A stretch of 64,000 nucleotides of DNA from Candidatus Tiddalikarchaeum anstoanum (GCA_902385255.1 CABMEV010000010.1:64114-128113); one strand, 5' to 3'; positions 1,179 through 50,205 are shown, numbered from the stretch's first letter. Numbers and translations are program-made. Notes: a model not told the origin generated them from the sequence alone.

Positions 1179-3698
1179 TTATGCGGACTCGCTTATTGAG
1201 TACTTCTTATAGAACCATTTTTTCATGAGTTCTACAAGTATTATGTATGTTATTACAAATATCACAAGTATGCCCATGAATGATAATGGAGGCGTTACGA
1301 ATCCAAACAATGAACCAATGAACGTGAAAGGTATTAATATTGCCATACTCACCATGATGAGATTATTTAGTATAAGGGACCTGCTTGGTTTGCTTTTGAA
1401 AAAAGGCACTTTGCTTGTCCTGATTGAGAATATTATTATTGTCTGGGTGCAGAACGATTCTATAAACCACGCTGTTTGAAAGAGAGCTGCAGGGGCTTTG
1501 AAGAAGTACAGCATGACGAAGAATGTCAAGAAGTCATATATTGAACTGATTGGTCCAATATAAAACATGAAATCCCTGATGAACTTGGAGTCCAATTTTT
1601 TAGGTTTCGTAATATATTCCTTGTCAACGTTGTCGGAGGGAATAGCTATCTGTGACACATCGTACATTAAGTTGTTCAATAATATCTGTATGGGCAGCAT
1701 TGGCAGGAAAGGCAGGAATAGTGATGCCACTGCGGCGCTGAACATGTTTCCGAAATTGGAGCTTAACCCCATCATTATATATTTCATGGTGTTTCCGAAC
1801 GTTTTTCTGCCCTCTAACACTCCGTCATATAACACTGCCAGGTCCTGCTTCAGAAGTATTATATCAGCAGTCTCTTTTGCTATATCAACGGCGTTGTTAA
1901 CTGATATTCCGACATCTGATGCTTTCATCGAGGGTGCATCGTTTATCCCGTCGCCCATGAATCCTACAACATGATTGTTGGATTTTAATGCGCTGATAAT
2001 CCTCGTCTTCTCTATTGGTGATACTCTTGTAAAAATATTCGCATTTTCAGCCGCGTTTTTTAACGCTTCATCACTCATTGTTTTTATTTCATTCCCGGAA
2101 AGCATATCCTTTATTTTGAACCCTAATTCTGTGCATATCATTCTAGTTACTAGCTCGTTGTCCCCTGTTAGTATCTTTAGTTCGACCCCTGAATTTTGCA
2201 ATTGTTTTATGGAATTCTTTGCACTCTCCTTAGGGGGGTCCATGAAGGCGACGAATCCTACGAACACCATGTCTTTTTCATCATTTACTGAATAACTCTT
2301 TTCCTTGCTGATTTCTTTGTAGGATACTCCTAAAACCCTGAATCCTTTGAGGCTCAAGTACTGGTATATCTTGTCTACTTTATCTTTCGCCTCTTTATTG
2401 AATGGTTTTATTTTTTCATTATTTTCATACTCTTTGCATATGCTTATCACTTCTTCAGGCGCACCTTTTGTTGCTATGAATCTTCTTCCATCTTCAGCAA
2501 CAACTGACACTCTTTTTCTTTTGAAATCAAAAGGTATCTCATCTATTTTTTTGTAATCATCAATGTTTATCTGCTTGTGCTCTATAATTGCTTCATCCAG
2601 TGCGCTTTTCAGCCCCGTCTGGAAATGGCTGTTAATATAGGAGTAGAATAATACTTTGTTATCCTCGTCGCCGTTCGTGTTCACATGCCTGACTAGGGTG
2701 ACCCTGTTCTCAGTTAATGTTCCTGTCTTGTCAGTGCATAATACGTCCATGCTGCCGAAATTTTGTATTGCTGCGAGGCGCTTTACTATAACATCCTTGT
2801 TTTTCATGTTTAATGCACCTTTCGACAAGTTGATTGAGGTTATCATAGGAAGCAGTTCTGGTGTTAATCCGACTGCGAGGGTTATTGCAAATAGCACCGA
2901 GTCTATAAAATCCCTTTTTAGAAGCGTGTTGACTATTACTGTAAATAATACGAGGAAGAATGTGACTTGTGTTATTAAATAGCTGAATCTTTTTAGTCCG
3001 CCTTCAAATTCTGTTTCGGGCCTGAGTGATACGCTTTTTATTATCTCCCCATACTCTGTCTGTTTTCCTGTTTTTACAACAACTACTGCAGCTTCCCCTG
3101 TCGTGACGAAAGTTCCCATGAAGAGATAATTTTTCCATTCTTCGCTTTTTGTGATTTCCGCGCTTTTATCCACTGGGAATGCTTCTCCTGTCAGCGCCGA
3201 CTGGTCCACTGCTAAGTCTTTGCTTTCTATTATCCTGCAGTCTGCAGGTATGATATCTCCCGCGCTCAAATATACTATATCACCAGGCACTATCTCTGAT
3301 ATTTTTATTTCAGTCTTTAGCCCGTTCCTTAATGCTAGCGTTGTTGTCCTTATTCTTTCTTCAAGTTTCTCTGCAGTTTTCTCAGCCCTGAATTCCTGAT
3401 AAGAGTCTAATATTACGCTAAAAAGTATTATTATGAATATTACTACCGAGTTGAACAATTCTTTTAATATTATTGATATTACGCTGACTATTACAAGTAT
3501 CATCACTAATGGGTTTGCAAAATGAGAGAATAAGTCTCCTATTGCCGTCTTTTTCTTTTTAACTATCTCATTGTATCCGTACTTCTTTACCCTCTCTTCA
3601 ACGTCGCTTATTGTGAGCCCGGACTTTGATGTTTCTAATTTTTTTAGAACTTCGCTGATAGGTAAGTGCACGATTTCTTCGGGTTTTAATTCAGCCAT
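1179..3698 (-). CDS. Cation-transporting P-type ATPase (Mg2+/Ca2+-type, P2/P3 family)
   Basis: 839 aa. DKTGTLT phosphorylation motif (CTDKTGTLTEN), TGEA actuator motif, GDGINDAPSMK hinge motif, about 10 TM segments. Confidence 0.9.
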   Translation of the reverse strand: MAELKPEEIVHLPISEVLKKLETSKSGLTISDVEERVKKYGYNEIVKKKKTAIGDLFSHFANPLVMILVIVSVISIILKELFNSVVIFIIILFSVILDSYQEFRAEKTAEKLEERIRTTTLALRNGLKTEIKISEIVPGDIVYLSAGDIIPADCRIIESKDLAVDQSALTGEAFPVDKSAEITKSEEWKNYLFMGTFVTTGEAAVVVVKTGKQTEYGEIIKSVSLRPETEFEGGLKRFSYLITQVTFFLVLFTVIVNTLLKRDFIDSVLFAITLAVGLTPELLPMITSINLSKGALNMKNKDVIVKRLAAIQNFGSMDVLCTDKTGTLTENRVTLVRHVNTNGDEDNKVLFYSYINSHFQTGLKSALDEAIIEHKQINIDDYKKIDEIPFDFKRKRVSVVAEDGRRFIATKGAPEEVISICKEYENNEKIKPFNKEAKDKVDKIYQYLSLKGFRVLGVSYKEISKEKSYSVNDEKDMVFVGFVAFMDPPKESAKNSIKQLQNSGVELKILTGDNELVTRMICTELGFKIKDMLSGNEIKTMSDEALKNAAENANIFTRVSPIEKTRIISALKSNNHVVGFMGDGINDAPSMKASDVGISVNNAVDIAKETADIILLKQDLAVLYDGVLEGRKTFGNTMKYIMMGLSSNFGNMFSAAVASLFLPFLPMLPIQILLNNLMYDVSQIAIPSDNVDKEYITKPKKLDSKFIRDFMFYIGPISSIYDFLTFFVMLYFFKAPAALFQTAWFIESFCTQTIIIFSIRTSKVPFFKSKPSRSLILNNLIMVSMAILIPFTFIGSLFGFVTPPLSFMGILVIFVITYIILVELMKKWFYKKYSISESA

Positions 3699-3755: not shown

Positions 3756-4118
3756 ATGGTTTCTTCAAAGAAGCTTGTTTTAGTTGTTGATGATAATGAA
3801 GATATTCGTTTTCTTGTTAAGACCTGGCTTACAAATGCTGGATTTTCCGTTGTCACCGCTGTTGATGGTGATGATTTAATAAAAAAGTTAGACAAGAATA
3901 TTGATTTGGTGTTGACTGATTTTCACATGCCGGGCCCCGACCCGAAAATAGTACTTGACTCTATTAAGAAGAAAAGTCCAAAGGCAAAAATTATCTATCT
4001 TACGGGCTCCGTTCCTGATGTTATGATTAAAAGTCCAGTTGTTGGTTTTATTTCAAAGCCTGTGGAGGAAGAGGTCTTGATTAAGAAATTAAAAGAATTA
4101 TTCCTTAAAAATAAATAA
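3756..4118 (+). CDS. Single-domain response regulator (receiver/CheY-like)
   Basis: 120 aa. LVVDDNEDIRFLV...LVLTDFHMPG (acidic pocket, phospho-acceptor Asp), conserved K near the C-terminus. No output domain. Confidence 0.85.
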   Translation: MVSSKKLVLVVDDNEDIRFLVKTWLTNAGFSVVTAVDGDDLIKKLDKNIDLVLTDFHMPGPDPKIVLDSIKKKSPKAKIIYLTGSVPDVMIKSPVVGFISKPVEEEVLIKKLKELFLKNK

Positions 4119-4153
4119 TTATTAAAGCTTTGACTGCCTTAACTTGAGGTTTA

Positions 4154-7100
4154 ATGGCTGGATACGATGATTTTACTAGTGAGAAATATTTTAGACTCTT
4201 GTTCGACAAGATGAGTGATGCGGCATTTCTCGCGGATGTCGAGTCCGGACTTTTATTTGATGCTAATTTGTCAGCAGTTAAATTAACAGGCAGAGCGAGA
4301 AGTGAGCTAGTTGGCAAGCATCAGTCTATTCTCCATACTGATAAGAATGAAGGTAAACGGATTTTCAGGGCAGCGATGCTTGAAGGTGCGCCTCACGAGT
4401 TTGAAAGCAGTGTAATCACAAAAAAAGGAAATATAGTTCCTGTTTTAATCACAGTCACTATTATCAAGCTTGATGGCAGAACTTTTGCCTTGGGAATTTT
4501 CAAAGATATCACTGAAATTAAACACGTCGAGACAGAATTATTGAAAGAGAGGGAATGGTCAAACTCGATTATCCACTCAGCTCCAAATATTATTATAGGA
4601 CTTGGCAAGAATTCTAAAATATTAATATTTAATGAGTTTGCAGAAAAACTTACTGGTTATAAGGCTAAAGAAGTCATTGGCAGTAACTGGATTGATATAT
4701 TCATATCTAAAGACAAGCGCAGGGAGATGTATAAATTATGGGAAAACATTGTTGACAAAAAATTGGTCGGGCATCATTATACTAATCCAATAATCCTGAA
4801 GGACAAATCGGAGCGTTTAATTTCATGGAACAACACCTGCTTAACTGAACATGATAAATTTAAGATGGTGCTTTCAATTGGTGAGGACGTTACCGAACGG
4901 GAGAAATTACTAATCCAGTTAAGACAGAGCGAGTATAAGTATCGCAAGATTTTCGATAATTCTCCTGAGATTATCATCCTGCTGGATAATTTCGGCAAAG
5001 TTCTCGATATTAATTATAGTGTCTTTAACGCTATTGGCTATAAACCCAGTGAGGTTATAGGTAAGTTATTCTTCAAGCTGCCTTTTATACCCAAAAAATC
5101 TATGGTAGCAATGAGAGAGAATTTTATCAAACGTGTTAAAGGCGAAGATGTCGGCTCTTATACTGCAGATTTCATAGCGAAAAACGGGCTTACGCATTAT
5201 GGCCAGGTAAATGGCTCCGTAGTCAAGGATGATAATGGAAGAATTATTCGGTCATTAATAACCATACGCGACATTACTGAGATTAAGAATGCTGAGACTG
5301 AATTGGTGGAGAGCGAGCAGAAGCTTTACAGCATTATTAACGGCTCGCTGACGCCCACGTTTGTCATAGGGACTAACCATAAAATATTATACTGGAATTC
5401 AGCTTTGGAAAAATTGAGCGGTCTTACTGCAAGGAAGATGATTGGCACAAATAATCAATGGGTGGTTTTTTACAATAAGAAGAGGCCTGTAATGTCGGAT
5501 TTATTGGTTAATGGAGATTTCAAGGCAGTTCATTCCTGGTATGCTAATAAAGTATCTAAGTCCAGCTTGTTAGCGAATGCGTACGAAGCCATTGATTTCT
5601 TCCCGAAATTAAAAAAGTGGCTGCGATTCGGTGCAGTCCCAATCAAGGACAGCAAAGGCAAACTAATTGGAGCTATTGAAACGTTAGAAGATATTACTGC
5701 AAAAAAGAAATTTGAGGAATTATTGATTAACAGTGAGTCTCGTTTCAAAGCTTTGTTTAATAACATGAAGAGCGGGGTTTCAGTTTATGAGGCAGTTAAT
5801 AATGGTAATGATTTCATTTTTAAGGATTTCAACAAGGCTGCCGAGCGTATCGATAAAATAAGCAAGGCGTCAGTTATTGGGAGGAGTATCTTGAAAGTTT
5901 TCCCTGGAGTTCGCAAGTTTGGATTGTTTGATATCTTTAAACAAGTATACAGGACAGGCGTTCCTAAACATCACCCTATATCATTGTATAAAGATAAAAG
6001 ATTGAACAGTTGGCGTGAGAATTATGTTTACAAGCTTCCTACTGGCGAGATTGTTGCTGTTTTTGATGATGTCACTGAGCAAAAAAAAGCAAATATCGCT
6101 TTAACTTTTAGTGAGGTTCGTTACAGGCGTTTGTTCGAGGCGGCGCGTGACGGAATATTTATACTGGATTATGAAACAGGGAAGATTGTTGACGTAAACC
6201 CTTACATGACCGAGATGCTAGGCTTCACCCACAATGAACTCATTGGCGAGAAGCTTTGGGATCTTGGCTATTTTAAGGATATTATCGCCAGCCGAGCTGC
6301 ATTCAAGATACTGCAGAAGAAAGGTTATATCCATTACGAGAACCTGCCTCTTAAAACTAAGAAAGGTATTATCTTTACTGTCGAATTTGTAAGCAATGTT
6401 TATGATGTTGGCGGCAGAAAAGTTATCCAGTGCAATATTAGGGATATTACTGGCCGTAAAAAGGCTGAAGAGAAGATAGTAAGCCTTGCCAGGTTCCCTA
6501 ATGAGAATCCAAATCCTGTAATGAGGTTTTCAAAGACAGACCTTTTATTTGCCAATAAGCCAGGTCTTGACTTTTTTAAAAAATATGTTGCTTTTTGCAA
6601 AAACCGCAAAGATACCCTTAGAAATCTGATAATTGAATCTTTAAAAAATAATATTAGAAAAGATGCAGAGATTAATCTCGGGGAGAATTATTATTTATTA
6701 TTTTTCATCCCGTTCGTTAATGAAAATTATGTTAATGTATATGCTATTAATATTACAACGCGCAGAAAGGCAGAGGGATTACTGCAGGACAGCGAATCCC
6801 GTTTTAGGGAATTATTCAGCAGTATGGGCAATGGTGTTGCAGTTTACGAAGCGGTTAATGACGGCGCAGATTTCATTTTTAAGGATTTGAACAAGGCAGG
6901 GGAAAGGATTAGCAAGATTAGGAGAAGTAAAGCAGTTGGGCAAAGGCTGACTAAACTATTCCCAAGCATTAAGAAATCAGGGCTGCTGGAAATGTTCACG
7001 CGCGTTTTCAAGACAGGGAAATCTGAAAGAATTCCAGCTGTACTTTATAATGACAAAAATTTAAACCAATGGGTTGATAATTATGTGTATAAACTACCAA

Positions 7101-9550
7101 CAGGAGAATTAATCGTTGTTTATGATGATATTACTGTTCGCAAGAAAATTGAAGATGAATTAAAGGATAGCGAGGAGAAATTCAGAACTCTCATTGAGAA
7201 TGCTTCTGACCAGATTTTTATTATTGATAATAAGTACAGATTTGTATCTGCAAATAAAGTTGTTCTGACACTGTTTAGAAAAACTCCAAACGAAGTAATA
7301 GGAAAACATATTTCTGAAATTTTTCCAAAAGAGATTGCCGCTAAGAATTTAGAGAATCTGAAACATATATTCAAAACAGGCAAAGGAATATTTATTGAAG
7401 AAAAATTGAATATTGGAGGGCATGAATTCTGGGCAAGTTCAAGTCTTAATCCTGTGAAAAATGACGCCGGGCAGGTAACAGCGGTGCAAGGTATTGTTAG
7501 GGATATTACTGAATTGAAAAAAGCTGAAGAAGCTGATAGAGTTAATTTTGAAAACAACAAAGTCCTCTCGGAATCAGCCATTCATCTTATTGAGATATCA
7601 AATGAGGATGACTTGCTTGATTACGTAACAAACCAGGTAAAGATACTGGCAGGAGATGTTGTTGTAGTAACAACCAGTGTTGACATAGAGAACGGCATTG
7701 CTCACATTAAGTCGGTTAAAGGTGTGGATAATTTAGAAAAAATTGCCAAATTATTTAATAAAAATTCTAAAAATATGTATTTTGAATCTCCAAAAAACTC
7801 TAATTTGGAATACAGGACGCCCTCCCTGCAGGAGTTCAAAGGAGGTATTTATGAACTTGCATTAAGGAGAATACCTAAACAAATATGTGATTTGATAAAT
7901 AATTGGCTGAATATAGACAAGATTTACTTGATGGCTTTTATGGTTAAAAAAGAGTTCTTAGGTGATATAATCATAATCACCAGGAGAGGTTCGGAACTGA
8001 AGAATAAAGAAGTAATAACTGCATTAGTCAATCAGTCATCAATTGCGCTGCAGAAAAAAATACTTGAGGAAGATATGAAAAAGAGCGAAGATAAGTATCG
8101 TAACCTAACTGAAAACATAAATGATATTATCTACTCCATGGATGATAAAGGTGTAATCACTTATATAAGCCCCAAGGTTGCATCGTACGGAATTAATCCT
8201 ATGCAGTTAATAGGTAAAAATTTTTCACATATCATATATCGTGATGATTTGCATAATATTTCGAATGATGTAACTACAACACTCAAGACAGGCAAAGAAT
8301 TCATATCTATTTTCAGGGTCCAAAATGATAAAGGGGAATTATTCTGGTTTGAAGACAAAGGAAAAGCTAGAACTGATGATTCAGGCAAGGTAGTTGGCAT
8401 ACTTGGGATAATAAGAGATATTACAGAACGAAGGAAAGCAGAGGAGAATTTGAGAAATTCTGAGGAGGAGTTTAGGACCATATTTGACAGTTCAACGGAT
8501 GGTATTATAGTTGTTGACTTAAATGGTAAAATATTAAAAATTAATAAAAAAATCTTGGAACTAACTGGATATGATGAATCTGACTTTATAGGGAAACTTT
8601 TTACAAGTTTATCTATGATTTCAATAAATGATTTGCCAAATCTTTCAGTCACATTCGCTGGCTATATGTCTAGTTTTACAAAATTAAATGAATTAGCTGA
8701 ATTTGAAATTAATACTCGAAAGGGGGAAAAATTAATCATAGAACTGAAAGCTTCACCATTTATCAAGAATGGCAGGAAAACAGGCATAATTTTAATAATT
8801 AGAGACATTACTGAGCGCAACAAGCTTGGAAAATTAGAATCCGACGCTAAAGTTAATGAAGAATTGAATAAGATGAGAAATGATTTCCTTATGATGATAA
8901 CCCACGAATTGAAGCAGCCATTAACCCCTATAATAGGTTATGCAGGGCTTCTAAAGAATGAAGAATTATCGCGCGTCTCCAGGGATTATGTTGATAAGAT
9001 TATTTCAAGCTCGTACAAAATGAAGGACTTGGTTAACAGCATCCTTACACTGATAAAATTAGAAGCTGGAACACTGGAATTCCACTTCGAAAAATATGAC
9101 TTATCACAAATTATTGTTGACTCATTAGCTGAGAAGACTTCGCTGATTTCATTGAAAAGAATAATTATCTCCAAAGAACTGGATAAAGTCGATGCGGTTT
9201 GCGACTATGAAAGGATTAAGGATACAGTAAATAATCTGATTGAAAACGCTGTAAAATTCTCAAAACCAAATTCTGAAATATATTTAAGATTATGGAAAGA
9301 CAATAATAATGCTTATATAATAGTAAAAGACCACGGTGTAGGAATAAGGAAAGATGATATCCCTAAATTGTTTACTAAATTCTACCAGACTGAAGAAGGT
9401 AGAAAAGAAGGAGGAACAGGGATTGGTCTGGCAATAGTAAAAATGATAATAGACAAACACCATGGTAATGTAAGAGTAAGTAGTGAATATGGCAAAGGTT
9501 CAGAGTTCATAATCTCCCTGCCTTTGAAAGGTGCTGACTATGGCAAGTAA
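4154..9550 (+). CDS. Giant multi-PAS/GAF sensor histidine kinase
   Basis: 1798 aa. About 10 PAS-like modules with repeated ...RDITE(R/L)K(K/N)AE... linkers. H-box MITHELKQPLTPIIGYAGLL. N-box NLIENAVKFS. G1 DHGVGIRKDD. G2 GGTGIGLAIVKMI. Confidence 0.9.
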   Translation: MAGYDDFTSEKYFRLLFDKMSDAAFLADVESGLLFDANLSAVKLTGRARSELVGKHQSILHTDKNEGKRIFRAAMLEGAPHEFESSVITKKGNIVPVLITVTIIKLDGRTFALGIFKDITEIKHVETELLKEREWSNSIIHSAPNIIIGLGKNSKILIFNEFAEKLTGYKAKEVIGSNWIDIFISKDKRREMYKLWENIVDKKLVGHHYTNPIILKDKSERLISWNNTCLTEHDKFKMVLSIGEDVTEREKLLIQLRQSEYKYRKIFDNSPEIIILLDNFGKVLDINYSVFNAIGYKPSEVIGKLFFKLPFIPKKSMVAMRENFIKRVKGEDVGSYTADFIAKNGLTHYGQVNGSVVKDDNGRIIRSLITIRDITEIKNAETELVESEQKLYSIINGSLTPTFVIGTNHKILYWNSALEKLSGLTARKMIGTNNQWVVFYNKKRPVMSDLLVNGDFKAVHSWYANKVSKSSLLANAYEAIDFFPKLKKWLRFGAVPIKDSKGKLIGAIETLEDITAKKKFEELLINSESRFKALFNNMKSGVSVYEAVNNGNDFIFKDFNKAAERIDKISKASVIGRSILKVFPGVRKFGLFDIFKQVYRTGVPKHHPISLYKDKRLNSWRENYVYKLPTGEIVAVFDDVTEQKKANIALTFSEVRYRRLFEAARDGIFILDYETGKIVDVNPYMTEMLGFTHNELIGEKLWDLGYFKDIIASRAAFKILQKKGYIHYENLPLKTKKGIIFTVEFVSNVYDVGGRKVIQCNIRDITGRKKAEEKIVSLARFPNENPNPVMRFSKTDLLFANKPGLDFFKKYVAFCKNRKDTLRNLIIESLKNNIRKDAEINLGENYYLLFFIPFVNENYVNVYAINITTRRKAEGLLQDSESRFRELFSSMGNGVAVYEAVNDGADFIFKDLNKAGERISKIRRSKAVGQRLTKLFPSIKKSGLLEMFTRVFKTGKSERIPAVLYNDKNLNQWVDNYVYKLPTGELIVVYDDITVRKKIEDELKDSEEKFRTLIENASDQIFIIDNKYRFVSANKVVLTLFRKTPNEVIGKHISEIFPKEIAAKNLENLKHIFKTGKGIFIEEKLNIGGHEFWASSSLNPVKNDAGQVTAVQGIVRDITELKKAEEADRVNFENNKVLSESAIHLIEISNEDDLLDYVTNQVKILAGDVVVVTTSVDIENGIAHIKSVKGVDNLEKIAKLFNKNSKNMYFESPKNSNLEYRTPSLQEFKGGIYELALRRIPKQICDLINNWLNIDKIYLMAFMVKKEFLGDIIIITRRGSELKNKEVITALVNQSSIALQKKILEEDMKKSEDKYRNLTENINDIIYSMDDKGVITYISPKVASYGINPMQLIGKNFSHIIYRDDLHNISNDVTTTLKTGKEFISIFRVQNDKGELFWFEDKGKARTDDSGKVVGILGIIRDITERRKAEENLRNSEEEFRTIFDSSTDGIIVVDLNGKILKINKKILELTGYDESDFIGKLFTSLSMISINDLPNLSVTFAGYMSSFTKLNELAEFEINTRKGEKLIIELKASPFIKNGRKTGIILIIRDITERNKLGKLESDAKVNEELNKMRNDFLMMITHELKQPLTPIIGYAGLLKNEELSRVSRDYVDKIISSSYKMKDLVNSILTLIKLEAGTLEFHFEKYDLSQIIVDSLAEKTSLISLKRIIISKELDKVDAVCDYERIKDTVNNLIENAVKFSKPNSEIYLRLWKDNNNAYIIVKDHGVGIRKDDIPKLFTKFYQTEEGRKEGGTGIGLAIVKMIIDKHHGNVRVSSEYGKGSEFIISLPLKGADYGK
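5740..6100 (+). repeat. Internal PAS-domain duplication, copy A, inside the giant kinase
   Basis: aa ESRFKALFNNMKSGVSVYEAVNNGNDFIFKDFNKAAERI...YVYKLPTGEIVAVFDDVTEQKKA is about 60% identical to copy B. Confidence 0.7.
6790..7150 (+). repeat. Internal PAS-domain duplication, copy B
   Basis: aa ESRFRELFSSMGNGVAVYEAVNDGADFIFKDLNKAGERI...YVYKLPTGELIVVYDDITVRKK. Confidence 0.7.
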
Positions 9551-9914
9551 TGAAATAATACATATAGATGATGATGAAGCTATAAGGGATTTGGTTGTTG
9601 CAGTATTAAAAACCGCGAATATTGAAATACTCAGTTTTCCCGATGCTGAAACTGCGCTCCAAAAAATAAAGAGCGGAGATGTGCGGTTGATAATCCTTGA
9701 CATGAAACTGCATAACAAGTTTGAAGGCGAAGACGTGTTAAAATGGCTTTCCGGCGTTAAAAGCAGGATTAAAGTCATAATTTTGACGGCAAACCCTTCT
9801 GAGATTAGCAGTAAATTAAAATCCGAATATTCTTCATTAGTAAGTGAATGTGTTATGAAGCCTTTTGAGCCTAAACTTTTGATTAATGCGGTTAAAAAAG
9901 CAATTGGCAAATAA
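9531..9914 (+). CDS. Single-domain response regulator (receiver only)
   Basis: 127 aa. IHIDDDEAIRDLV...RLIILDMKLHN. The start overlaps the kinase stop by 20 nt, suggesting translational coupling. Confidence 0.8.
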   Translation: MLTMASNEIIHIDDDEAIRDLVVAVLKTANIEILSFPDAETALQKIKSGDVRLIILDMKLHNKFEGEDVLKWLSGVKSRIKVIILTANPSEISSKLKSEYSSLVSECVMKPFEPKLLINAVKKAIGK

Positions 9915-9986
9915 TAACTTGATGGAAAATACTGCTATAATCAATAATAAAGTATTAAAAACGTTATATACTAATTCATAATATAA

Positions 9987-10661
9987 ATGGCTGATTTAAT
10001 ATCTCTCATCTTCAATATTTCATGGATATTGTTAAGTGCGATAACATCAGTTTTTTCTTTCATACTCGCCAAAAAGTTTTGGAAAACAAAACAGAGAATA
10101 TGCTTCCTGCTAATAGCAGTTTCAATGCTTCTTGACTTAATTGCCAATTTTTTCTGGGCTGGAAATTTCATCGTTTACGGAAGCGAGGACTTAATACCTT
10201 ACCCCACATTCATGGATATATTATGGTTTACTTATTATACCCTGTTAGGTTTTGGAGTGTTGACTTACTGGGTTAGCATATACAGGGAAATTTATGAAAA
10301 CATCCCTGTTTTTTGGATTATGATGATTATAGCATTATCTGTTGCATCATGCTTTTTTGCGCCAGTGTTTTTCGGACCCAGTGCAGACATGATTACACAA
10401 ATAGCTGATTCTTTATACATAGGTCTTCCTTTGTTTTCATCACTTAACTGCATACCTCTCCTTCTTTTTTTTAAAGAAGGCAGGTTGTCAAAACCATGGT
10501 TGTATATGGGAATTGCCTTAACCATTAACTTAGCAGCTGAAATTGTCTGGATTATTGAATCTGTTAATGATTTTGGTTCAATTTCTTCAAATATTTTGTA
10601 CGCATTAGGTTATATTTTTATGATAACCTCTTATTGGAAACTTAATAAACTTAATATTTGA
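9987..10661 (+). CDS. Stand-alone 7-TM membrane protein (possible 7TM sensor module)
   Basis: 224 aa with seven predicted hydrophobic helices and no soluble domain. It sits directly upstream of a 7TM histidine-kinase-like gene. Confidence 0.55.
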   Translation: MADLISLIFNISWILLSAITSVFSFILAKKFWKTKQRICFLLIAVSMLLDLIANFFWAGNFIVYGSEDLIPYPTFMDILWFTYYTLLGFGVLTYWVSIYREIYENIPVFWIMMIIALSVASCFFAPVFFGPSADMITQIADSLYIGLPLFSSLNCIPLLLFFKEGRLSKPWLYMGIALTINLAAEIVWIIESVNDFGSISSNILYALGYIFMITSYWKLNKLNI

Positions 10662-10711
10662 ACGCTTTTTGATTACAAATAATTAAAAACTAATGCTTTG
10701 TTATAATCTGT

Positions 10712-12328
10712 ATGGATATATACATGATTTATCCGGTTTTGCTTCTTATAACAATTATAACTCCTTTTGTAATAATCGGACTGGTTTTCAGGAACAAATC
10801 AAGGCTCGTAAAATTATTTATCCTGGTTCTTTTATGCTTATCAGGCTGGTCTTTTTTCACTTTTTTTGAAATATTGTCCCCAGTCTACAAACCGTTAATC
10901 TACGAGTTTAGCTTCATTTTCAGGACGGCGGTTTCGCCGCTTATGCTGGTATTTGTTTTGGAATTTACAGGAAGAACAAAACTGGTAAATAAGAAATTAA
11001 TCATTGCATTATCACTCTTCTATGCAGCAGTCATAGTTTTATTATTAACCAACAATTATCACAAATTATTCTTGAATTCAATATCCTTAGTCAACCTGCC
11101 TTATGATACAGTAGTAACAGAATCTGTTAAAGGCCCGCTTTTTAATGCATACTTGGCGTATAATTATTCCCTTTTAATAATAGCCTGTTTTATACTATTA
11201 GATTTTATAGTGAATAAAAAAGGGTCGTACAAAGGGGGTTTAATCATCCTTTTAGGTTTATTGATGCCTTTTGCAGCAAACGTATTAACAAATATTTTTC
11301 CAGACATTTTTAATGTCAAACTTGATTTGACTGTGTTGTTTTTTATGGTAACTGAAATACTTTTCCTGGTTGCCGTTAGTTTTTTCAAGCTTATACCTCT
11401 TAGCCGCAACATGGTTTTTGATTTCATCGACGACTCGATTTTTATATTAAACGATGAAGATGTAGTTATTGATTTTAACAAGAATGCTAAAAGGATGATA
11501 GATGAGAAAATAATCAATTATAATTCAGATAAGATTACGGGCGTGAAGATTAACGACTTATTTGGTTCAATTAATTATAAGGGGGAAAACATCATTTTTT
11601 CCGCAAAACAAAAAAGTTATTTCATAGAACAGACACCAATATTTACCAATTCTGAAGTTATAGGTAAACTGCTACGCATCAAGGATATCACATATATGCA
11701 AAAAATTGAAAATTTGACAAAGGACAAGGAGATTAGTGATTTGAAGGATAAATTTGTTTTGTTGATGATTCATGACTTGAAGCAGCCATTAACCCCTATA
11801 ATAGGTTTCTCTGAACTTTTAAAGGAGAGTGCGAATCCTAAACAGAAAGAGTATTCTGACAAGATATTATCCAATGCCTACAAACTAAAGGATATAACTG
11901 AGAAGGTTATAAATTCATTAAAATTCACGGCTGAGACATATGAAAAAACAGATGAGAAAAATTATCTTTCAGAAATAGTAGACGGTGTGCTGGATTCTTT
12001 AGAAACTAGCATAGCTTCGCATAAGGTGAAGATTTTAAAAAAAATTGACAAGATAATGATATCTTATGATTCAAGCGTATTTTCGAAAGTCTTGTCCAAA
12101 ATACTTGAGGATTTAATAAGCGCCAGCCAAGCAGGTAATATTGTTGGTATAGAAAGTTCTGAAGACTCAAAAAACATTTATGTTAATATAAAATTTAAAA
12201 TCAATAGCACTTTCATAAATGATTTGGAGTTTGAAATAATCAAGAGGAAATTGTCAGTTATAAATGTCATATTTGAATTAAAAGATAATGAAATGATAAT
12301 AACACTCCCAAAATCGGGAAAAGCTTAA
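10712..12328 (+). CDS. 7TM-anchored histidine-kinase-like protein with an apparently degenerate ATP-binding domain
   Basis: 538 aa. N-terminal ~230 aa has about 7 TM helices. The H-box MIHDLKQPLTPIIGFSELL is near-identical to that of the giant kinase. In the C-terminal ~170 aa I cannot find N-box, G1 (DxGxG) or G2 (GxGxG) motifs. Confidence 0.7.
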   Translation: MDIYMIYPVLLLITIITPFVIIGLVFRNKSRLVKLFILVLLCLSGWSFFTFFEILSPVYKPLIYEFSFIFRTAVSPLMLVFVLEFTGRTKLVNKKLIIALSLFYAAVIVLLLTNNYHKLFLNSISLVNLPYDTVVTESVKGPLFNAYLAYNYSLLIIACFILLDFIVNKKGSYKGGLIILLGLLMPFAANVLTNIFPDIFNVKLDLTVLFFMVTEILFLVAVSFFKLIPLSRNMVFDFIDDSIFILNDEDVVIDFNKNAKRMIDEKIINYNSDKITGVKINDLFGSINYKGENIIFSAKQKSYFIEQTPIFTNSEVIGKLLRIKDITYMQKIENLTKDKEISDLKDKFVLLMIHDLKQPLTPIIGFSELLKESANPKQKEYSDKILSNAYKLKDITEKVINSLKFTAETYEKTDEKNYLSEIVDGVLDSLETSIASHKVKILKKIDKIMISYDSSVFSKVLSKILEDLISASQAGNIVGIESSEDSKNIYVNIKFKINSTFINDLEFEIIKRKLSVINVIFELKDNEMIITLPKSGKA

Positions 12329-12381
12329 GAAAAATTTATTAAACATAGAGTACATTAAAACTGTTAAGAGATGTTTGAATA

Positions 12382-12777
12382 TTGAAATTTCTTGTTGTAG
12401 ATGATGAAGAAGATATACGCTTATTAATAACGACGTGGCTCAAAAGAAAAGGTTATGACTACATAACCGCAGTTAACGGTGATGACTGCATCACTAAATT
12501 AACAAAAGATATAGATATAATATTATTGGATATAATAATGCCAGGGCTTAAGGCTAAAGATGTGATTGACGGCATTAAAAAGAAGAATCCAAATGTGAGA
12601 GTAATATACTTAACAAGTGTGAAACCCTTCAATGTAACTCAGGAGCAGGAGAAAAAAGGCTTAGTTCCGGTAATAGAACCGCCAATTATAGGTTATATTG
12701 AGAAGCCGCTGGACGAGAAAACTTTCTTTTCAAGAATAGACGACGCGTTAAAGATGAAGAAGTTCTTGAAAAAATAA
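12382..12777 (+). CDS. Single-domain response regulator (receiver only), TTG start
   Basis: 131 aa. (M)KFLVVDDEEDIRLLITTWL...IDIILLDIIMPG. The upstream ATG at 12371 hits a stop after 4 codons, so TTG at 12382 is used. Confidence 0.8.
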   Translation: MKFLVVDDEEDIRLLITTWLKRKGYDYITAVNGDDCITKLTKDIDIILLDIIMPGLKAKDVIDGIKKKNPNVRVIYLTSVKPFNVTQEQEKKGLVPVIEPPIIGYIEKPLDEKTFFSRIDDALKMKKFLKK

Positions 12778-12784
12778 AATAATT

Positions 12785-13360
12785 TTATCTGAGGAATCCC
12801 TCTTTTTTCAATATTAATCTTCCTAATTCGTCAAGACTTGAATAATAACAGATATTATGAATGTCATCTTCGAAGTTAGACGGCAGTTTCTGGCTTATGC
12901 ACCTTTCATCAATAAAGAGATGAATATTTCTCAATTTCTTATCCTTGAATGCACCATATTTCTGATGATATTTGATAAAAGAGAGTTCTATTAAACTGCC
13001 TGGCGAGAATCCGAGGCATATAATACACAACGCCTGCTTTGTCAACTCAGCGTTTAATTTATACCAGTCGCCGTCAATAGGCCTAGTTTCATACTTTTCG
13101 AAATTCTTCTTCAAGTGCTCATAACCATAATAAGTATCTTTGTCAGGGTAGTAACCGATTGGTTTCTTTTTCTTAATCTCGCCGAACTTTAATGCAATAT
13201 CCGTATAAACACCATCGTCAGGAGCGACTATTATGTTGTCAAAGACTTTAGCCAGGAACTTTGCATAATCATAAACGAAATTTTGGTAATCCTCCTTTTT
13301 TATTCCGCCTAAATTCCACAATACTTGCCTGTCAGATAACCCTATCAAGACTGCATCCAT
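12785..13360 (-). CDS. Hypothetical protein; possibly a LOG/SLOG-superfamily Rossmann-like fold
   Basis: 191 aa. The segment LGFSPGSLIELSF resembles the PGGxGTxEEL motif of LOG-family proteins and the size fits. Other LOG motifs are not clear. Weak call. Confidence 0.3.
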   Translation of the reverse strand: MDAVLIGLSDRQVLWNLGGIKKEDYQNFVYDYAKFLAKVFDNIIVAPDDGVYTDIALKFGEIKKKKPIGYYPDKDTYYGYEHLKKNFEKYETRPIDGDWYKLNAELTKQALCIICLGFSPGSLIELSFIKYHQKYGAFKDKKLRNIHLFIDERCISQKLPSNFEDDIHNICYYSSLDELGRLILKKEGFLR

Positions 13361-13414: not shown

Positions 13415-14698
13415 ATGATATTCGCAGATTTTCACATACACTCAAAATACAGCCGCGCAACAAGCAGCACCATGGACATCAAGCACTTATCAGAGTACGG
13501 TTCTATGAAGGGATTAAACGTTATAGGAACAGGAGATTTCACGCACCCAAAATGGAGAAGCGAGATAAAAAGAGACACTGAATACTTAGGCAAAGGAATT
13601 TACAAAAGCAGGTTCAATAATATGAGGTTTGTGCTCTCAAGCGAGATAGCAACAATATACTCCCAGGGCGATTCTGTCAGGAAGATACACCATATAATAA
13701 TACTGCCTGACTTTGAAATAGTTGAACAATTCGTGGATAACTTAAGCAGGAAATTATTGGCATCAAATAAGAAAGCCAACTTCACAAGCGACGGGAGGCC
13801 AATAATAGGGATGAGCAGTTTGGAGCTTTGCGACACGCTGTTTTCAACTTATGATAAAGCACTCTTAATACCTGCTCATATATGGACTCCATGGTTCAGC
13901 CTGTTTGGAAGCGGAAGCGGATTTGACAAGATAGAAGACTGCTACGGCAAGTACACTAAGAATATTTTTGCATTAGAGACGGGACTGTCATCCGACCCAT
14001 TGATGAACTGGAGACTGTCACAGATAGCGGATAAGACATTAATCAGCAACAGCGACTGCCACGGCCCGTTCGTTGACAGGATAGGACGGGAGTGCAACGT
14101 TTTTGATACAACGCTTGACGCTTTCAACTATGACTACTTATATGACGCATTAAAGAATAAGAAATTAGCATTCACTGTAGAGGTTGACCCAAGTTACGGC
14201 AAGTACCATTTCGACGGACATAGGAACTGCAACATCTGCTTTACGCCAAAAGAGAGCATACAACATAAGAATATCTGCCCGGTATGCAGGCGCAAGTTAA
14301 CAATAGGAGTGCTTCACAGGGTTGAGGAACTCGCTGACAAACCTGAAGGTTACAAGCCTCTAAATGCAGTGCCTTTCCAGTACCACGTTCCGCTCATAGA
14401 AATAATAGCTGCACTGACTGGTAAAGGAATCGGAACCAAGGGAGTGAAGGAACAGTATTTTGAATTAATCAAAAAATACGGCAACGAGTTTAACATAATG
14501 TTCAACCTGTCTGTTAATGAGATAGAAAGTTCATTTACAGGGCTTGGGAAAATAATACAATCACTCAGGGATAAGACTATGAAGGTAACGCCAGGTTATG
14601 ACGGCGTGTACGGAGTTCCAGGTATAGGAACTTTGAAAGATAAACCTTCTAAAACAGTTAAAACACCCCAAAAAAGCATTTTAGAATTCCAAAAGTAA
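13415..14698 (+). CDS. PHP-domain endonuclease, endonuclease Q (EndoQ)-like, for deaminated-base repair
   Basis: 427 aa. FADFHIHSKYSRA (PHP HxH), LISNSDCHGP, VEVDPSYGKYHFDGH and the Zn-finger CNICF...CPVCRR match my recollection of the Pyrococcus EndoQ architecture and its ~424-aa length. Confidence 0.7.
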   Translation: MIFADFHIHSKYSRATSSTMDIKHLSEYGSMKGLNVIGTGDFTHPKWRSEIKRDTEYLGKGIYKSRFNNMRFVLSSEIATIYSQGDSVRKIHHIIILPDFEIVEQFVDNLSRKLLASNKKANFTSDGRPIIGMSSLELCDTLFSTYDKALLIPAHIWTPWFSLFGSGSGFDKIEDCYGKYTKNIFALETGLSSDPLMNWRLSQIADKTLISNSDCHGPFVDRIGRECNVFDTTLDAFNYDYLYDALKNKKLAFTVEVDPSYGKYHFDGHRNCNICFTPKESIQHKNICPVCRRKLTIGVLHRVEELADKPEGYKPLNAVPFQYHVPLIEIIAALTGKGIGTKGVKEQYFELIKKYGNEFNIMFNLSVNEIESSFTGLGKIIQSLRDKTMKVTPGYDGVYGVPGIGTLKDKPSKTVKTPQKSILEFQK

Positions 14699-14732: not shown

Positions 14733-15575
14733 ATGACTTTAAGGGATATTTTGTACACAACATCCAATGAGATAACTAATATTAAAGATAATATTTCAGA
14801 ATATTCTGCAACTTCTCAAAAATACACTGACTGCCTTGTTAATATGCAGAGAATAAATTACATATTAGATTTGGACAGGGGAAAGAAAGAAGGTTTATTG
14901 GATAAGTTTCACAGCCTAAACATTTCAAGGATTACACCTATTAAGGGAAGAGGATATCTTCAGAACATAATTGGCGAACTTGAGGAAGTTCAAACGGTTT
15001 TCGAGGAAGAAGTTCCGGAATTTAATGATACTTTAAATCGGATTATTTCATCATATCATAACAATGAGATAAGCGATGATAACGCATGTCTTATACTAAT
15101 GACTAATTGGCTGGCTAATTCGAATTATAGAGATGATTTAGTATTGACTGAAATTATGGAATATATGAATCTTGCTAAGATTAATTCTGCAAGAACTGCA
15201 GTAGAGATGCTTGGAACTAACTCTTTCAATGAAGATTTGCAGGAAAAATTTAATTATTTTATTGAAAACTTAAGCAATACGCTCAGGGGAACTAAATTGA
15301 CTTTTTTATATCCGGAACCGGAACTTAAAACAAGTCAAAAAATTAAGCCAAGCTCTATATTAAACGCACCTGTTAATACTACTTTTGAAAATTTAGAAAT
15401 AAATTTTGACTTTATTAACGATGATGTTCCTGTTAAGAATTACAGAATAATGGAGAATGATAACTTAGTTGCAGAGATTAACCCTGCCGTAACAGCCATA
15501 CTTCACGAAAATAATCATGCAAAAATCGTAAGCCTTACTAACTTATTGGATTTTATTATGCCAAGATTAAACTGA
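14733..15575 (+). CDS. Hypothetical protein, probably co-transcribed with the EndoQ-like gene (34-nt gap)
   Basis: 280-aa ORF with no recognisable motif. Confidence 0.5.
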   Translation: MTLRDILYTTSNEITNIKDNISEYSATSQKYTDCLVNMQRINYILDLDRGKKEGLLDKFHSLNISRITPIKGRGYLQNIIGELEEVQTVFEEEVPEFNDTLNRIISSYHNNEISDDNACLILMTNWLANSNYRDDLVLTEIMEYMNLAKINSARTAVEMLGTNSFNEDLQEKFNYFIENLSNTLRGTKLTFLYPEPELKTSQKIKPSSILNAPVNTTFENLEINFDFINDDVPVKNYRIMENDNLVAEINPAVTAILHENNHAKIVSLTNLLDFIMPRLN

Positions 15576-22529: not shown

Positions 22530-23684
22530 ATGGCAAAAAGAAAACATGCTAAATTAAAGCCTGAAAAGAAGGAACCTGAAAAGAAAAAAATAGTAGAAGA
22601 CGGTGCCAATTTGGAAAACCTAATACCTATAGACTGGAAAATACCAGTTTCTTTCTTAGCTGGTGTTGTGTTAACAATACTTTACTTTACACTATTCACG
22701 GGCACTTCAGGAACATCAAATACTAATACGGGCGGGAATACACTGCCTGGAAATACAGTACTATCTGATGCGCATGTTAACCTTATAGTGTTGACAGATA
22801 ATGCGTGTACAGTTTGTGATTACAGCTGGATACCAATCAGAGTTAGAATGGACTATTCAAATGTAACGATAAGTTATGTTGATGTAAGTTCAACGCAGGG
22901 ACAAAGTTACGTTAGCTCTCTTGGGATAACCAGTGTTCCAACAGCATTCTTTGACAGCTCAGTTGTGAACGCAGCAAACTTTTCAACTTATACACAGAAT
23001 AATTGGTTAATACCATCAGGAACGTATTACTTACTGAACATACAGGGAGAGAAGGATTTAACAAGAACGCCTTCAGCAACTCCAAAAATAGACTTGTTCG
23101 TAATGAGCCATTGCCCTTATGGAACAGCAGCAGAGACAACTATGAATAATATGTTAAATACAGTATCAGGATTTGACTTTAATGTACACTTCATAGGAAC
23201 AGTGTATAATGAGAGCGACGTACCTGCTAACGTGCTTTCAAACCTTGACCAGTACGGATTGATAAGAAAGAACGACTCAAAATATTATTCAACACTGCAT
23301 GGTACAACTGAACTCGACGGAGACATAGCTCAACTTTGCGCAATGAAATACTATCCTGCAACTTGGTGGAACTTCACACTCGCATACAATACAGCTAATT
23401 TCAACTTAGCAAGCGCGATAGCAACACTTGGTTACAATTCATCATTAATAATGAATTGTGTTAACTCACCTGAAGGATGGAACTTATTCGCAGAAGATGT
23501 GCAAATAGCTGAAGAGTTAGGTATCAGTTCAAGCCCAACTTACATGTTTGACAACACCATAAGACCGCAGCAATCAATACAAACTTATGGACCAGCAGGA
23601 GTACTATGTACGCTGCACTCAACATTAAACGGTTGTGCTAATATAGACCAGATACAGACAGCAACAGCAACTGGAAGCTGCTAA
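22530..23684 (+). CDS. Secreted or membrane-anchored Cys/Thr/Asn-rich protein with multiple N-glycosylation sequons (candidate glycoprotein)
   Basis: 384 aa. Lys-rich N-terminus then one TM (PVSFLAGVVLTILYFTLF). Six N-x-S/T sequons (NVT, NFS, NES, NDS, NFT, NSS) and about 10 Cys. Confidence 0.6.
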   Translation: MAKRKHAKLKPEKKEPEKKKIVEDGANLENLIPIDWKIPVSFLAGVVLTILYFTLFTGTSGTSNTNTGGNTLPGNTVLSDAHVNLIVLTDNACTVCDYSWIPIRVRMDYSNVTISYVDVSSTQGQSYVSSLGITSVPTAFFDSSVVNAANFSTYTQNNWLIPSGTYYLLNIQGEKDLTRTPSATPKIDLFVMSHCPYGTAAETTMNNMLNTVSGFDFNVHFIGTVYNESDVPANVLSNLDQYGLIRKNDSKYYSTLHGTTELDGDIAQLCAMKYYPATWWNFTLAYNTANFNLASAIATLGYNSSLIMNCVNSPEGWNLFAEDVQIAEELGISSSPTYMFDNTIRPQQSIQTYGPAGVLCTLHSTLNGCANIDQIQTATATGSC

Positions 23685-49577: not shown

Positions 49578-50205
49578 TCGCGACTATTAATGATTTATAG
49601 GAGAATATTTTTCCAGTTAAGCCGTTTACCCAATTAATTAACCGCTTATTGTTTAAGTAATAGAGAATCCTGCCTAAACCTCTTGGCGTTACCCACTCCC
49701 TTGATACTATATTTATGTCGAATCCATTGTCTTTCAGAATTTCTATGATTGCCCTTGGGTGAACAGGCTGCCTATGTGTATAATCGTTGAAGAACTCCCA
49801 TTTGCGTCTCCTTATATCCGGAAAAACCAGCATCATTTTTCCGCCTTTTTTTAAAACTCGCGACCACTCTTTTATTATTTCATAGCGGTTATCCAAGTGT
49901 TCTATCACGCAGTCCGAGCATACTGCATCGAAAACTCCGTCTTTAAACTGCAATTTTTTTGCATCCCCAAGTTTAACGTTCAAGCCTTTTTTAGCTGCGT
50001 ATTTAATGAAAGTTTCATTATTATCCAATCCGAACGCTTCAACTTTTTTCGGGAGAAATTCCAAGAATGCACCCCAGCCGCAGCCTATATCTAATACTCT
50101 TTTTGGTTCTCCTAAAATGTCATAATAGTGCAGGACCTGTATTTCCCGCATAAACTTGGAATACTTGTTGGCGTAAGGTTTAGGCAGAACGTGTTCATAA
50201 TACAT
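49567..50205 (-). CDS. Class I SAM-dependent methyltransferase
   Basis: 212 aa. VLDIGCGWGAFLEFL, FDAVCSDCVIEHL. Confidence 0.8.
   Translation of the reverse strand: MYYEHVLPKPYANKYSKFMREIQVLHYYDILGEPKRVLDIGCGWGAFLEFLPKKVEAFGLDNNETFIKYAAKKGLNVKLGDAKKLQFKDGVFDAVCSDCVIEHLDNRYEIIKEWSRVLKKGGKMMLVFPDIRRRKWEFFNDYTHRQPVHPRAIIEILKDNGFDINIVSREWVTPRGLGRILYYLNNKRLINWVNGLTGKIFSYKSLIVATKV

Follow-up and report, generated by a model that had tools for sequence, protein, structure and literature searches.

We analyzed a 64,000-nucleotide (nt) stretch of DNA from Candidatus Tiddalikarchaeum anstoanum (GCA_902385255.1, CABMEV010000010.1:64114-128113), which is hereafter referred to as the window and in which positions are counted from the first letter. 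The region of positions 3756-12777 is a two-component signaling cluster of this DPANN archaeon. It is composed of six genes in the order REC1-HK1-REC2-7TM-HK2-REC3, all on the plus strand, and the six open reading frames (ORFs) were confirmed at their coordinates. REC1, REC2, and REC3 consist of a receiver (REC) domain only; HK1 is a giant soluble histidine kinase (HK); HK2 is a membrane-bound kinase-like protein; and the sixth gene encodes a stand-alone membrane protein with about seven transmembrane segments (7TM). The main finding is that the catalytic domain of HK2 has been stripped of its ATP-binding motifs, and HK2 has very probably lost kinase activity; namely, it would be a pseudokinase. 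The cluster is best read as two copies of a unit in which a kinase of one family is followed by a REC-only gene, together with an extra REC paralogue and an orphan membrane protein. With a confidence slightly above even, we propose that it comprises two kinase-to-REC modules, in which HK2 would serve as a kinase-dead auxiliary and the output would be provided by the REC-only proteins.

HK2, a kinase-like protein without ATP-binding motifs

HK2 (10712-12328; 538 amino acids, aa) is built of a HisKA_7TM domain, a weak PAS-like linker, a DHp domain with the histidine, and a degenerate catalytic domain. Its aa 10-228 match HisKA_7TM (PF16927) with an E-value of 2.2e-34 and 119.7 bits against a cutoff of 28.6, and seven hydrophobic segments were found by hydropathy. 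The DHp domain (11747-11911; H-box MIHDLKQPLTPIIGFSELLK) is matched by the Pfam family HisKA at aa 346-400 (E 2.3e-10; 40.8 bits against a cutoff of 26.9), and the phospho-acceptor His354 (nt 11771-11773) sits within MIHDLKQPLTPIIGF.

Three features were found in the C-terminal part. One is that Pfam gave no match to HATPase_c in the C-terminal 139 aa, even at E ≤ 10. Another is that a remnant of the catalytic domain (11945-12325) is traceable in the family alignment, by hhalign, and in an AlphaFold model: the Asn of the N box is replaced by Asp (KILEDLISA, from nt 12098), and the G1, F, and G2/lid motifs have been lost through in-frame deletions. When the HK2 C-terminus was compared with the family core, hhalign returned a probability of 99.7% across 203 columns, and the gaps coincided exactly with the three missing motifs. 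The last feature is that HK2 is the sole family member with a gutted catalytic domain; in the alignment of the best matches, all the others keep N, G1, F, and G2.

The AlphaFold model of the HK2 core was built on a 9-sequence alignment and has a predicted local distance difference test score (pLDDT) of 75; a full-length model built from the single sequence (pLDDT 42) was discarded. The DHp hairpin, the N-box helix, and the beta-sheet are kept in the core model, and residues 170-186, located where the lid and the G2 helix are expected, have pLDDT values below 50. A Foldseek search of the PDB with the HK2 model returned generic cores of DHp plus catalytic ATP-binding domain, from kinases and pseudokinases alike, and did not separate ChpT/Spo0B-like folds from kinase-like folds. 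The neighbors included the kinase regions of RetS, GacS, and DivL, with TM-scores of 0.45-0.6 and identities of 9-15%.

Since HK2 has lost every ATP-binding motif, it should be unable to autophosphorylate. A frameshift or an assembly error was considered as the cause of this loss and was rejected, because the other reading frames are interrupted by many stop codons; moreover, the loss is made up of three separate in-frame gaps plus substitutions. HK2 retains His354, the acidic residue at His+1 (Asp355), and a perfectly conserved DHp helix 1. The gutted catalytic domain, which had been overlooked in a preliminary description of the cluster, is the real reason to consider a non-canonical flow of phosphate.

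No orthologue of HK2 was found by phmmer among 1.84 billion representative proteins; the next-best match to its core (aa 330-538) has an identity of 33% (E 8e-18). The 7TM region of HK2 resembles a Chloroflexota 7TM-PAS-GGDEF-EAL protein (27% identity over 335 aa) more closely than the family member of locus L101 described below (L numbers designate loci of relatives). HK2, the stand-alone 7TM protein, and REC3 are each 100% identical to entries for Ca. T. anstoanum at NCBI, where HK2 is an "Uncharacterised protein".

HK1, an intact giant kinase

HK1 (4154-9550; 1798 aa) is a soluble multi-PAS sensor histidine kinase. A GAGGT Shine-Dalgarno-like site lies 5 nt before its ATG, and no transmembrane segment was found by hydropathy. 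Segment-wise Pfam scans showed a DHp domain and an intact ATP-binding domain in addition to some 10 PAS or PAS-like units; for aa 771-890 and 1131-1320, neither these scans nor sequence searches of the PDB gave a match. The DHp domain (8873-9070; H-box ITHELKQPLTPIIGYAGLLK) corresponds to the HisKA match at aa 1574-1639 (E 1.7e-15; 57.3 bits against a cutoff of 26.9), and its phospho-acceptor His1584 (nt 8903-8905) sits within ITHELKQPLTPIIGY. The catalytic ATP-binding domain (9203-9529) is matched by HATPase_c at aa 1684-1792 (E 4.5e-28; 98.3 bits against a cutoff of 26.4), and its four boxes are intact: NLIENAVKF (N), DHGVGI (G1), FTKFYQ (F), and GGTGIGL (G2). With both HisKA and HATPase_c matched, HK1 is assigned to the Class I sensor histidine kinases; HK2, in which the ATP-binding part of this definition is missing, is not classed as a functional kinase.

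The C-terminal 493 aa of HK1 are 52.5% identical to a 1469-aa kinase of L013 and 47% identical to a 1713-aa kinase of L094. HK1 also carries an internal duplication of a PAS-like unit: nt 5699-6118 and 6779-7198 (aa 516-655 and 876-1015) encode copies with 54% identity over 132 aa. This unit is barely recognized by Pfam, and the 1469-aa kinase of L013 apparently has one copy. A scan of genome contigs with HK1 returned bacterial multi-PAS kinases only, at 23-48% identity and with chance peptide patterns, and was uninformative on its origin.

The kinase family and its H-box

The top matches to the HK2 core belong to one lineage-specific family, which includes two "Candidatus Nanoarchaeia archaeon" proteins and VVB76348.1, a third kinase (835 aa) of Ca. 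T. anstoanum. At least three kinase-like genes (HK1, HK2, and VVB76348.1) are thus present in this organism. The signature TH[EDH][LI]KQP[LI][TM]PI, found in both HK1 and HK2, was used to define membership. The H-box, TH(E/D)LKQPLTPIxGY, is nearly unchanged in at least 12 kinases from several DPANN-like assemblies, VVB76348.1 being one of these kinases. The catalytic motifs of the other members are NLIDNAIKF in the N box, DxGxGI in G1, FxKFYQ in F, and GGTGIGL in G2.

The preliminary description had quoted almost identical H-boxes for the two kinase-like proteins and had taken their DHp domains as paralogous. The two strings were quoted correctly and agree at 13 of 17 residues. The inference of paralogy is right as well, since homology links the two DHp domains (31% identity over 175 aa); in the phmmer search mentioned above, HK1 was the 5th-ranked match to the HK2 core. 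The same description had seen in the shared H-box a pointer to heterodimerization or cross-phosphorylation between HK1 and HK2. This step does not follow: since the H-box is common to the whole family, it tells nothing specific on either event.

Another property of the family is that Gln is invariant at His+4. The corresponding residues are HELKQ in HK1 and HDLKQ in HK2, neither of which fits the HisKA phosphatase motif H-E/D-x-x-T/N. At L101 (5001-7403; Logan SRR7048220), another member of the family has HisKA_7TM-dCache_1-HAMP ahead of the family DHp domain, and its catalytic domain is intact; therefore, 7TM sensors also occur on working kinases of the family. When metagenomes were scanned with the alignment of the family core, matches to the generic N-box pattern dominated the result; the 80 loci kept had only 28-36% identity and provided no synteny information.

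Two families of receivers

REC1 (3756-4118; 120 aa), REC2 (9540-9914; 124 aa), and REC3 (12382-12777; 131 aa) match the Pfam family Response_reg with E-values of 8.5e-18, 6.8e-16, and 1.7e-15, respectively (57.6-65 bits against a cutoff of 30.2). REC1 has the acidic residues D12/D13, the phospho-acceptor D55 (nt 3918-3920), T83, and K101; REC2, as numbered from the ATG at 9540, has D10-D12, the phospho-acceptor D54 (nt 9699-9701), T83, and K107; and REC3 has D7/D8, the phospho-acceptor D50 (nt 12529-12531), T78, and K108. For REC2, this ATG, which is preceded at 6 nt by an AGGTG Shine-Dalgarno-like site, is a likelier start than the GTG at 9531, from which the protein would have 127 aa. The start of REC2 overlaps the end of HK1. 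The TTG start of REC3 comes right after an in-frame stop codon and an ATA codon.

The cluster had been described beforehand as having three stand-alone receivers and no response regulator with an output domain, and this picture stands. The three REC-only proteins are intact, each with its Asp and Lys, and no output-domain response regulator is encoded within the 64-kb window according to Pfam, phmmer, and profile-HMM searches; a cognate regulator nearby, or receivers devoid of Asp or Lys, had been named as the observations that would speak against it. Nor was any further REC or kinase core revealed in the window when every six-frame ORF with 50 aa or more was searched by phmmer and with profile HMMs. 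The Hpt family was not detected by Pfam in the six cluster proteins and most window ORFs of at least 110 aa.

The receivers of the cluster and of the related loci split cleanly into two types, between which the identity is only 19-29%. Type A comprises REC2 and one receiver each from L013 (L013_REC125), L094 (L094_REC120), and L103 (L103_REC122), which are 37-41% identical; REC2 is only 20-25% identical to the type-B receivers. Type B comprises REC1, REC3, and five others (L094, L096, L098 twice, and L099), with 34-54% identity. The coordinates of these five are 13919-14326 in L094, 9885-10328 in L096, 5968-6423 and 11800-12237 in L098, and 2800-3225 in L099. REC3 is 40-53% identical to the receivers that come after mid-size kinases (L096, L098, and L099) and to the unlinked receiver of L094. 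REC1, an extra type-B paralogue placed upstream of HK1, has an identity of 46-49% with REC3 and of 41-51% with the type-B receivers of the related loci. Type B is marked by an insert between beta4 and beta5, ...YLTSVKAFxxTxEQExKGWxPxxxPPVIGYIEKP, the copy of which in REC3 is ...YLTSVKPFNVTQEQEKKGLVPVIEPPIIGYIEKP; about 11 aa of it are missing in REC1. This insert, ending with PPVIGYIEKP, maps to the side of the fold that commonly serves for output in receivers. At the switch position, three residues before the Lys (Tyr106 in CheY), REC1 has Phe, REC3 has Tyr, and REC2 has Cys; the other type-A receivers have Cys or Val.

The two types also differ in the kinases that they follow. Type A follows the giant kinases (1469-1798 aa; each of the three examined) and one 1005-aa kinase (L103), and type B, namely REC3 and its relatives, comes after mid-size kinases. 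A candidate specificity code in the DHp domain, in which His+1 would be Glu in the kinases paired with type A and Asp in most of those paired with type B, was ruled out, since the 793-aa kinase of L098 is paired with type B and has Glu.

Gene neighborhoods of the related kinases

The loci of nine family members were compared, including seven soluble PAS kinases outside the window. In six of the seven (the 1469-aa kinase of L013, the 1713-aa kinase of L094, P0011, P0006, the 793-aa kinase of L098, and P0010), a REC-only gene lies directly downstream; the seventh, P0007, has a fused N-terminal REC, and a REC-only gene lies immediately upstream of it. In L099, a REC-only gene likewise comes next after a separate 208-aa PAS protein and a 292-aa kinase core (P0009). 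Both kinases of the window, HK1 and HK2, are likewise directly trailed by a REC-only gene. REC3 directly follows HK2 and not, as had been stated at first, the stand-alone 7TM protein.

The presence of stand-alone receivers without output domains had been read as pointing to a phosphorelay or a phosphate sink. REC-only proteins account for about 40% of the archaeal response regulators, and for about 75% in some phyla, while DNA-binding regulators are rare (PMC5847659); in addition, a REC-only gene adjoins all seven soluble relatives. Since REC-only proteins are the archaeal default and the habitual neighbors of these kinases, they are by themselves no sign of a phosphorelay or a sink.

In L013 and L094, the giant kinases are accompanied by second kinases, the catalytic domains of which are intact. 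L094 9979-11265 (Logan SRR7048220) presents a giant kinase, a type-A receiver, a 646-aa kinase, and then a Roadblock/LC7 gene and two V4R genes. The Roadblock/LC7 and V4R genes may be an output or accessory module of the family, and they are absent from the window.

Proposed phosphate flow and its alternatives

HK1 and REC2 form a conserved, probably co-translated pair, because the HK1 C-terminus and REC2 are, respectively, 52.5% and 36% identical to the L013 kinase and its receiver. HK2 and REC3 look like a second unit of the same design, with the kinase dead. In the first module, the PAS array of HK1 would integrate intracellular cues (redox state, ligands, or metabolites), and HK1 would autophosphorylate at His1584 and pass the phosphoryl group to Asp54 of REC2, its presumptive cognate receiver. 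In the second, HK2, gated by a membrane signal through its 7TM domain, would act on the type-B receivers REC3 and REC1. It may exchange phosphoryl groups with them through His354, by back-transfer or as a sink or relay in the manner of ChpT and Spo0B, or it may dephosphorylate them. The phosphoryl input to this type-B branch would come from an intact family kinase, for which HK1 and VVB76348.1 are candidates. The output would be achieved by protein-protein interactions of the phosphorylated REC-only proteins, with no DNA-binding regulator; such interactions are the prevailing archaeal output mode of REC-only regulators (PMC5847659). Candidate targets would be the type IV pilus machinery, which has been reported for this genome, or proteins like the Roadblock/V4R proteins of L094. 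Between the two roles of HK2, phosphotransfer seems slightly favored over the phosphatase role, because HK2 keeps both His354 and Asp355 and because Gln at His+4 departs from the phosphatase motif.

Several points weigh against this two-module proposal. First, the phosphotransfer steps are all inferred, and so are the signals, the targets, and the way in which phosphate moves at HK2. Second, two membrane kinases of the family, the MASE3 kinase of L013 and the 7TM-dCache-HAMP kinase P0014, have no adjacent REC, and adjacency is therefore the sole ground for pairing HK2 with REC3. Third, the positions His+7, +8, +11, and +12 in DHp helix 1, which usually set partner specificity, as found in work on PhoQ and EnvZ, are identical in the kinases paired with type A and those paired with type B; thus, the sequences indicate neither insulation nor a particular route. 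Fourth, the Gln at His+4 weakens the phosphatase branch of the model. Fifth, since HK2 has no orthologue, purifying selection on it is unmeasurable, and it may be a gene on its way out. Finally, the searches for Hpt proteins and output-domain regulators cover the 64-kb window only.

Among the alternatives, it is unlikely, but deserves consideration, that HK2 is a dedicated, signal-controlled phosphatase for phosphorylated REC3 and REC1, with the phosphate being supplied by HK1 or VVB76348.1; a bifunctional kinase/phosphatase would thereby be divided between two proteins. Phosphatase activity needs neither the His nor the acidic residue at His+1, as known from EnvZ and HK853, and this counts against such a role. 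In its favor, DHp helix 1 of HK2 is fully conserved, and the phosphatase activity of DHp domains is independent of ATP hydrolysis and has been proposed for the archaeal proteins of the "HisKA, no HATPase" class (PMC5847659). However, His+4 is Gln instead of Thr or Asn, and in CrdS the equivalent change, N375Q, abolished the phosphatase activity (PMC3510030).

A four-step phosphorelay, in which phosphorylated HK1 would pass phosphate to REC2 as a shuttle, then to His354 of HK2, and finally to REC3 and REC1 as terminal effectors, is distinctly unlikely. The architecture of HK2 agrees with it, being that of ChpT and Spo0B, namely, a DHp domain with His and a catalytic-like domain unable to bind ATP (PMC9981736 for ChpT), and the type-A receivers lack an aromatic switch residue, as does the REC-only intermediary Sma0114 (PMC9981736). 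The order HK1-REC2-(7TM)-HK2-REC3 parallels the supposed flow, and the Gln at His+4 disfavors a simple phosphatase role. On the other hand, the relatives have giant kinase-REC(A) pairs without a kinase-dead partner, the second kinases of L013 and L094 being intact, and type-A receivers are therefore not obligate shuttles. HK2 is, moreover, a singleton; in Pfam it matches HisKA_7TM, HisKA, and, weakly, PAS, and none of the other phosphotransferase families. To our knowledge, no archaeal His-Asp-His-Asp relay of this type has been documented. By analogy, HK2 might even be a recently evolved, membrane-anchored, and signal-gated His phosphotransferase, namely, a sensor kinase turned ChpT/Spo0B-like by the loss of its ATP site; we regard this as quite improbable. 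If it were true, HK1 to REC2 to HK2 to REC3/REC1 would be the first His-Asp-His-Asp phosphorelay in an archaeon, and, in a host-dependent DPANN cell, it could link what the PAS array senses inside the cell with a cue that the 7TM domain receives at the membrane or from host contact.

It is equally improbable that HK2, and perhaps the orphan 7TM ORF too, is a decaying relic, with the working system being HK1-REC2 and the REC-only proteins served by other kinases. Reductive evolution in DPANN genomes (PMC8561730) is consistent with this, as are the position of HK2 as the only gutted family member, its lack of an orthologue, and the orphan status of the 7TM ORF. However, the 538-codon ORF of HK2 is unbroken in DNA of about 33% G+C, where stop codons arise easily and the other frames of the 3′ part are filled with them, and all three deletions are in frame. 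Furthermore, conservation is perfect for DHp helix 1, the His, and the acidic residue, in contrast to the diverged catalytic remnant, as would be expected if the DHp function were selectively retained.

The last alternative, a heterodimer between the DHp domains of HK1 and HK2, in which HK1 would phosphorylate the HK2 His in trans or HK2 would inhibit HK1 in the RetS/GacS style, is very doubtful: the DHp domains are homologous with nearly identical helices 1, HK2 needs an external phosphate source, and the structural search with the HK2 model retrieved, among others, the kinase regions of RetS and GacS, but the H-box identity is family-wide (at least 12 kinases, including a third one of this genome) and carries no pair-specific signal, the identity between the HK1 and HK2 cores (31%) is no higher than that to kinases of other organisms, helix 2 and the bundle base, which usually set dimer specificity, have diverged in HK2, HK1 is soluble while HK2 is membrane-bound, and the fold matches are to generic kinase cores.

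The stand-alone membrane protein and the surrounding genes

The stand-alone membrane protein (9987-10661; 224 aa) has about seven transmembrane segments by hydropathy. A word-based search of 5.8 billion clustered proteins returned only the protein itself, and neither Pfam at E ≤ 10 (HisKA_7TM included) nor NCBIfam gave a match. BLAST detected no similarity to the 7TM region of HK2, the MASE3 region of L013, or the neighbors of about 200 aa, membrane-bound or soluble, that accompany the giant kinases in L013 and L094. Only from its position do we infer that this protein is a member of the signaling system.

Upstream of the cluster, a gene for a magnesium-translocating P-type ATPase (TIGR01524, 921 bits) lies on the minus strand (1179-3698), divergent from REC1. 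The start codons of the two genes are 57 nt apart, and the TATA-like sequence tttaaata is located between them, about 25 nt upstream of the REC1 ATG. This arrangement suggests leaderless divergent transcripts and possibly a shared regulation.

Downstream, three ORFs gave no match in Pfam or NCBIfam: 12785-13360 (minus strand; 191 aa), 14733-15575 (plus strand; 280 aa), and 22530-23684 (plus strand; 384 aa). A neighbor of 427 aa (13415-14698) matches TIGR00375 under the curated cutoff (206 vs 326.6 bits). The region of about 28200-63750 is one large cell-surface glycosylation island, a big outlay for a 1.16-Mb genome. It contains AglB/STT3 (28228-30870), more than 12 glycosyltransferases, several S-adenosylmethionine (SAM) methyltransferases, B12-binding radical SAM enzymes (43106-44584 and 50195-51691), a flippase-like Polysacc_synt protein, and sugar-nucleotide enzymes.

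The possibility that the contig is a bacterial contaminant was examined and rejected: Orc1/Cdc6 and AglB/STT3 are present in the window, the G+C content is even, and the kinase family occurs in other Nanoarchaeia assemblies. Topoisomerase I, the TIGR00375 protein, and the large glycosylation island are also encoded in the window.

Host genome and comparison with known systems

Ca. T. anstoanum is placed in the order Tiddalikarchaeales (= CG07-land) of the Nanoarchaeota, DPANN. Its metagenome-assembled genome has 1.16 Mb with 36.5% G+C. Pathways for making amino acids and nucleotides are absent from it, as are an ATP synthase and a respiratory chain, and the organism was judged to be host-dependent; kinases and two-component systems go unmentioned in the genome description (PMC8561730). 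DPANN archaea are generally regarded as sensing very little. They have the lowest kinase frequency of the surveyed groups, about 0.06 per 100 genes, and kinases of Nanoarchaeota were first reported in 2023 (PMC10805038), the finished Nanoarchaeota genomes having had none (PMC5847659). The whole cluster occupies 0.78% of the genome, and HK1 alone occupies 0.47%. This expenditure of 0.78% of a small, host-dependent genome on signaling suggests that sensing, possibly of host contact or redox, is under selection.

In design, HK2 belongs to the archaeal "HisKA, no HATPase" class of non-enzymatic kinase-like proteins, in which, as in HK2, a sensor and a HisKA domain with the His occur with no recognizable HATPase; the candidate roles considered for this class, as phospho-acceptor, in phosphotransfer, or as phosphatase, are the same as those for HK2 (PMC5847659). 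The cases of this class are mainly from Archaeoglobi and Methanomicrobia (PMC5847659), whereas HK2 is from a DPANN archaeon and has a 7TM sensor. Unlike them, HK2 keeps a traceable catalytic remnant and has an identifiable intact parent family.

ChpT of Caulobacter and Brucella and Spo0B of Bacillus, like HK2, have a DHp four-helix bundle with the His and a degenerate domain related to the catalytic domain (PMC9981736). They shuttle phosphate between receivers and serve more than one acceptor; the likeness of HK2 to them is one of architecture only. ChpT and Spo0B are soluble and sensorless, whereas HK2 has a 7TM sensor and a PAS-like linker and matches no Pfam phosphotransferase family.

In the RetS-GacS system of Pseudomonas and the DivL-DivK system of Caulobacter, kinase-like proteins reportedly signal without autophosphorylating themselves; they are said to bind the DHp domain of another kinase, to siphon phosphate, or to sense a phosphorylated REC-only protein. 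DivL differs from HK2 in having Tyr in place of the His, which HK2 keeps, and RetS differs in that it is of the hybrid type and contains receiver domains. RedCDEF of Myxococcus xanthus is reportedly a single operon for REC-only regulators and two kinase-like proteins, with no output domain; one of the kinase-like proteins is said to work mainly by removing or receiving phosphate and not by autophosphorylation. RedCDEF differs in being bacterial and of unrelated families and, reportedly, in that RedE retains a catalytic domain, and its resemblance to the present cluster is a functional analogy only.

The FilI-FilR2 system of Methanosaeta harundinacea consists, as here, of an archaeal kinase and a stand-alone REC (PMC5847659). 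FilI also has the DNA-binding partner FilR1, whereas none is found here within the 64 kb. The annotation of VVB76348.1 as "FilI" is an automatic name and is not evidence of orthology.

Multi-PAS cytoplasmic kinases, REC-only regulators, HisKA_7TM sensors, and HATPase-less kinase-like proteins have all been described in archaea (PMC5847659). The cluster is thus rare in its lineage, yet every part of it is of a known class, and the current concepts are unchanged. The details noteworthy for the lineage are a kinase family with Gln at His+4, two REC-only families, which this cluster defines, and a datable conversion of a kinase to a pseudokinase, for which HK2 and the intact family members provide a natural before/after pair.

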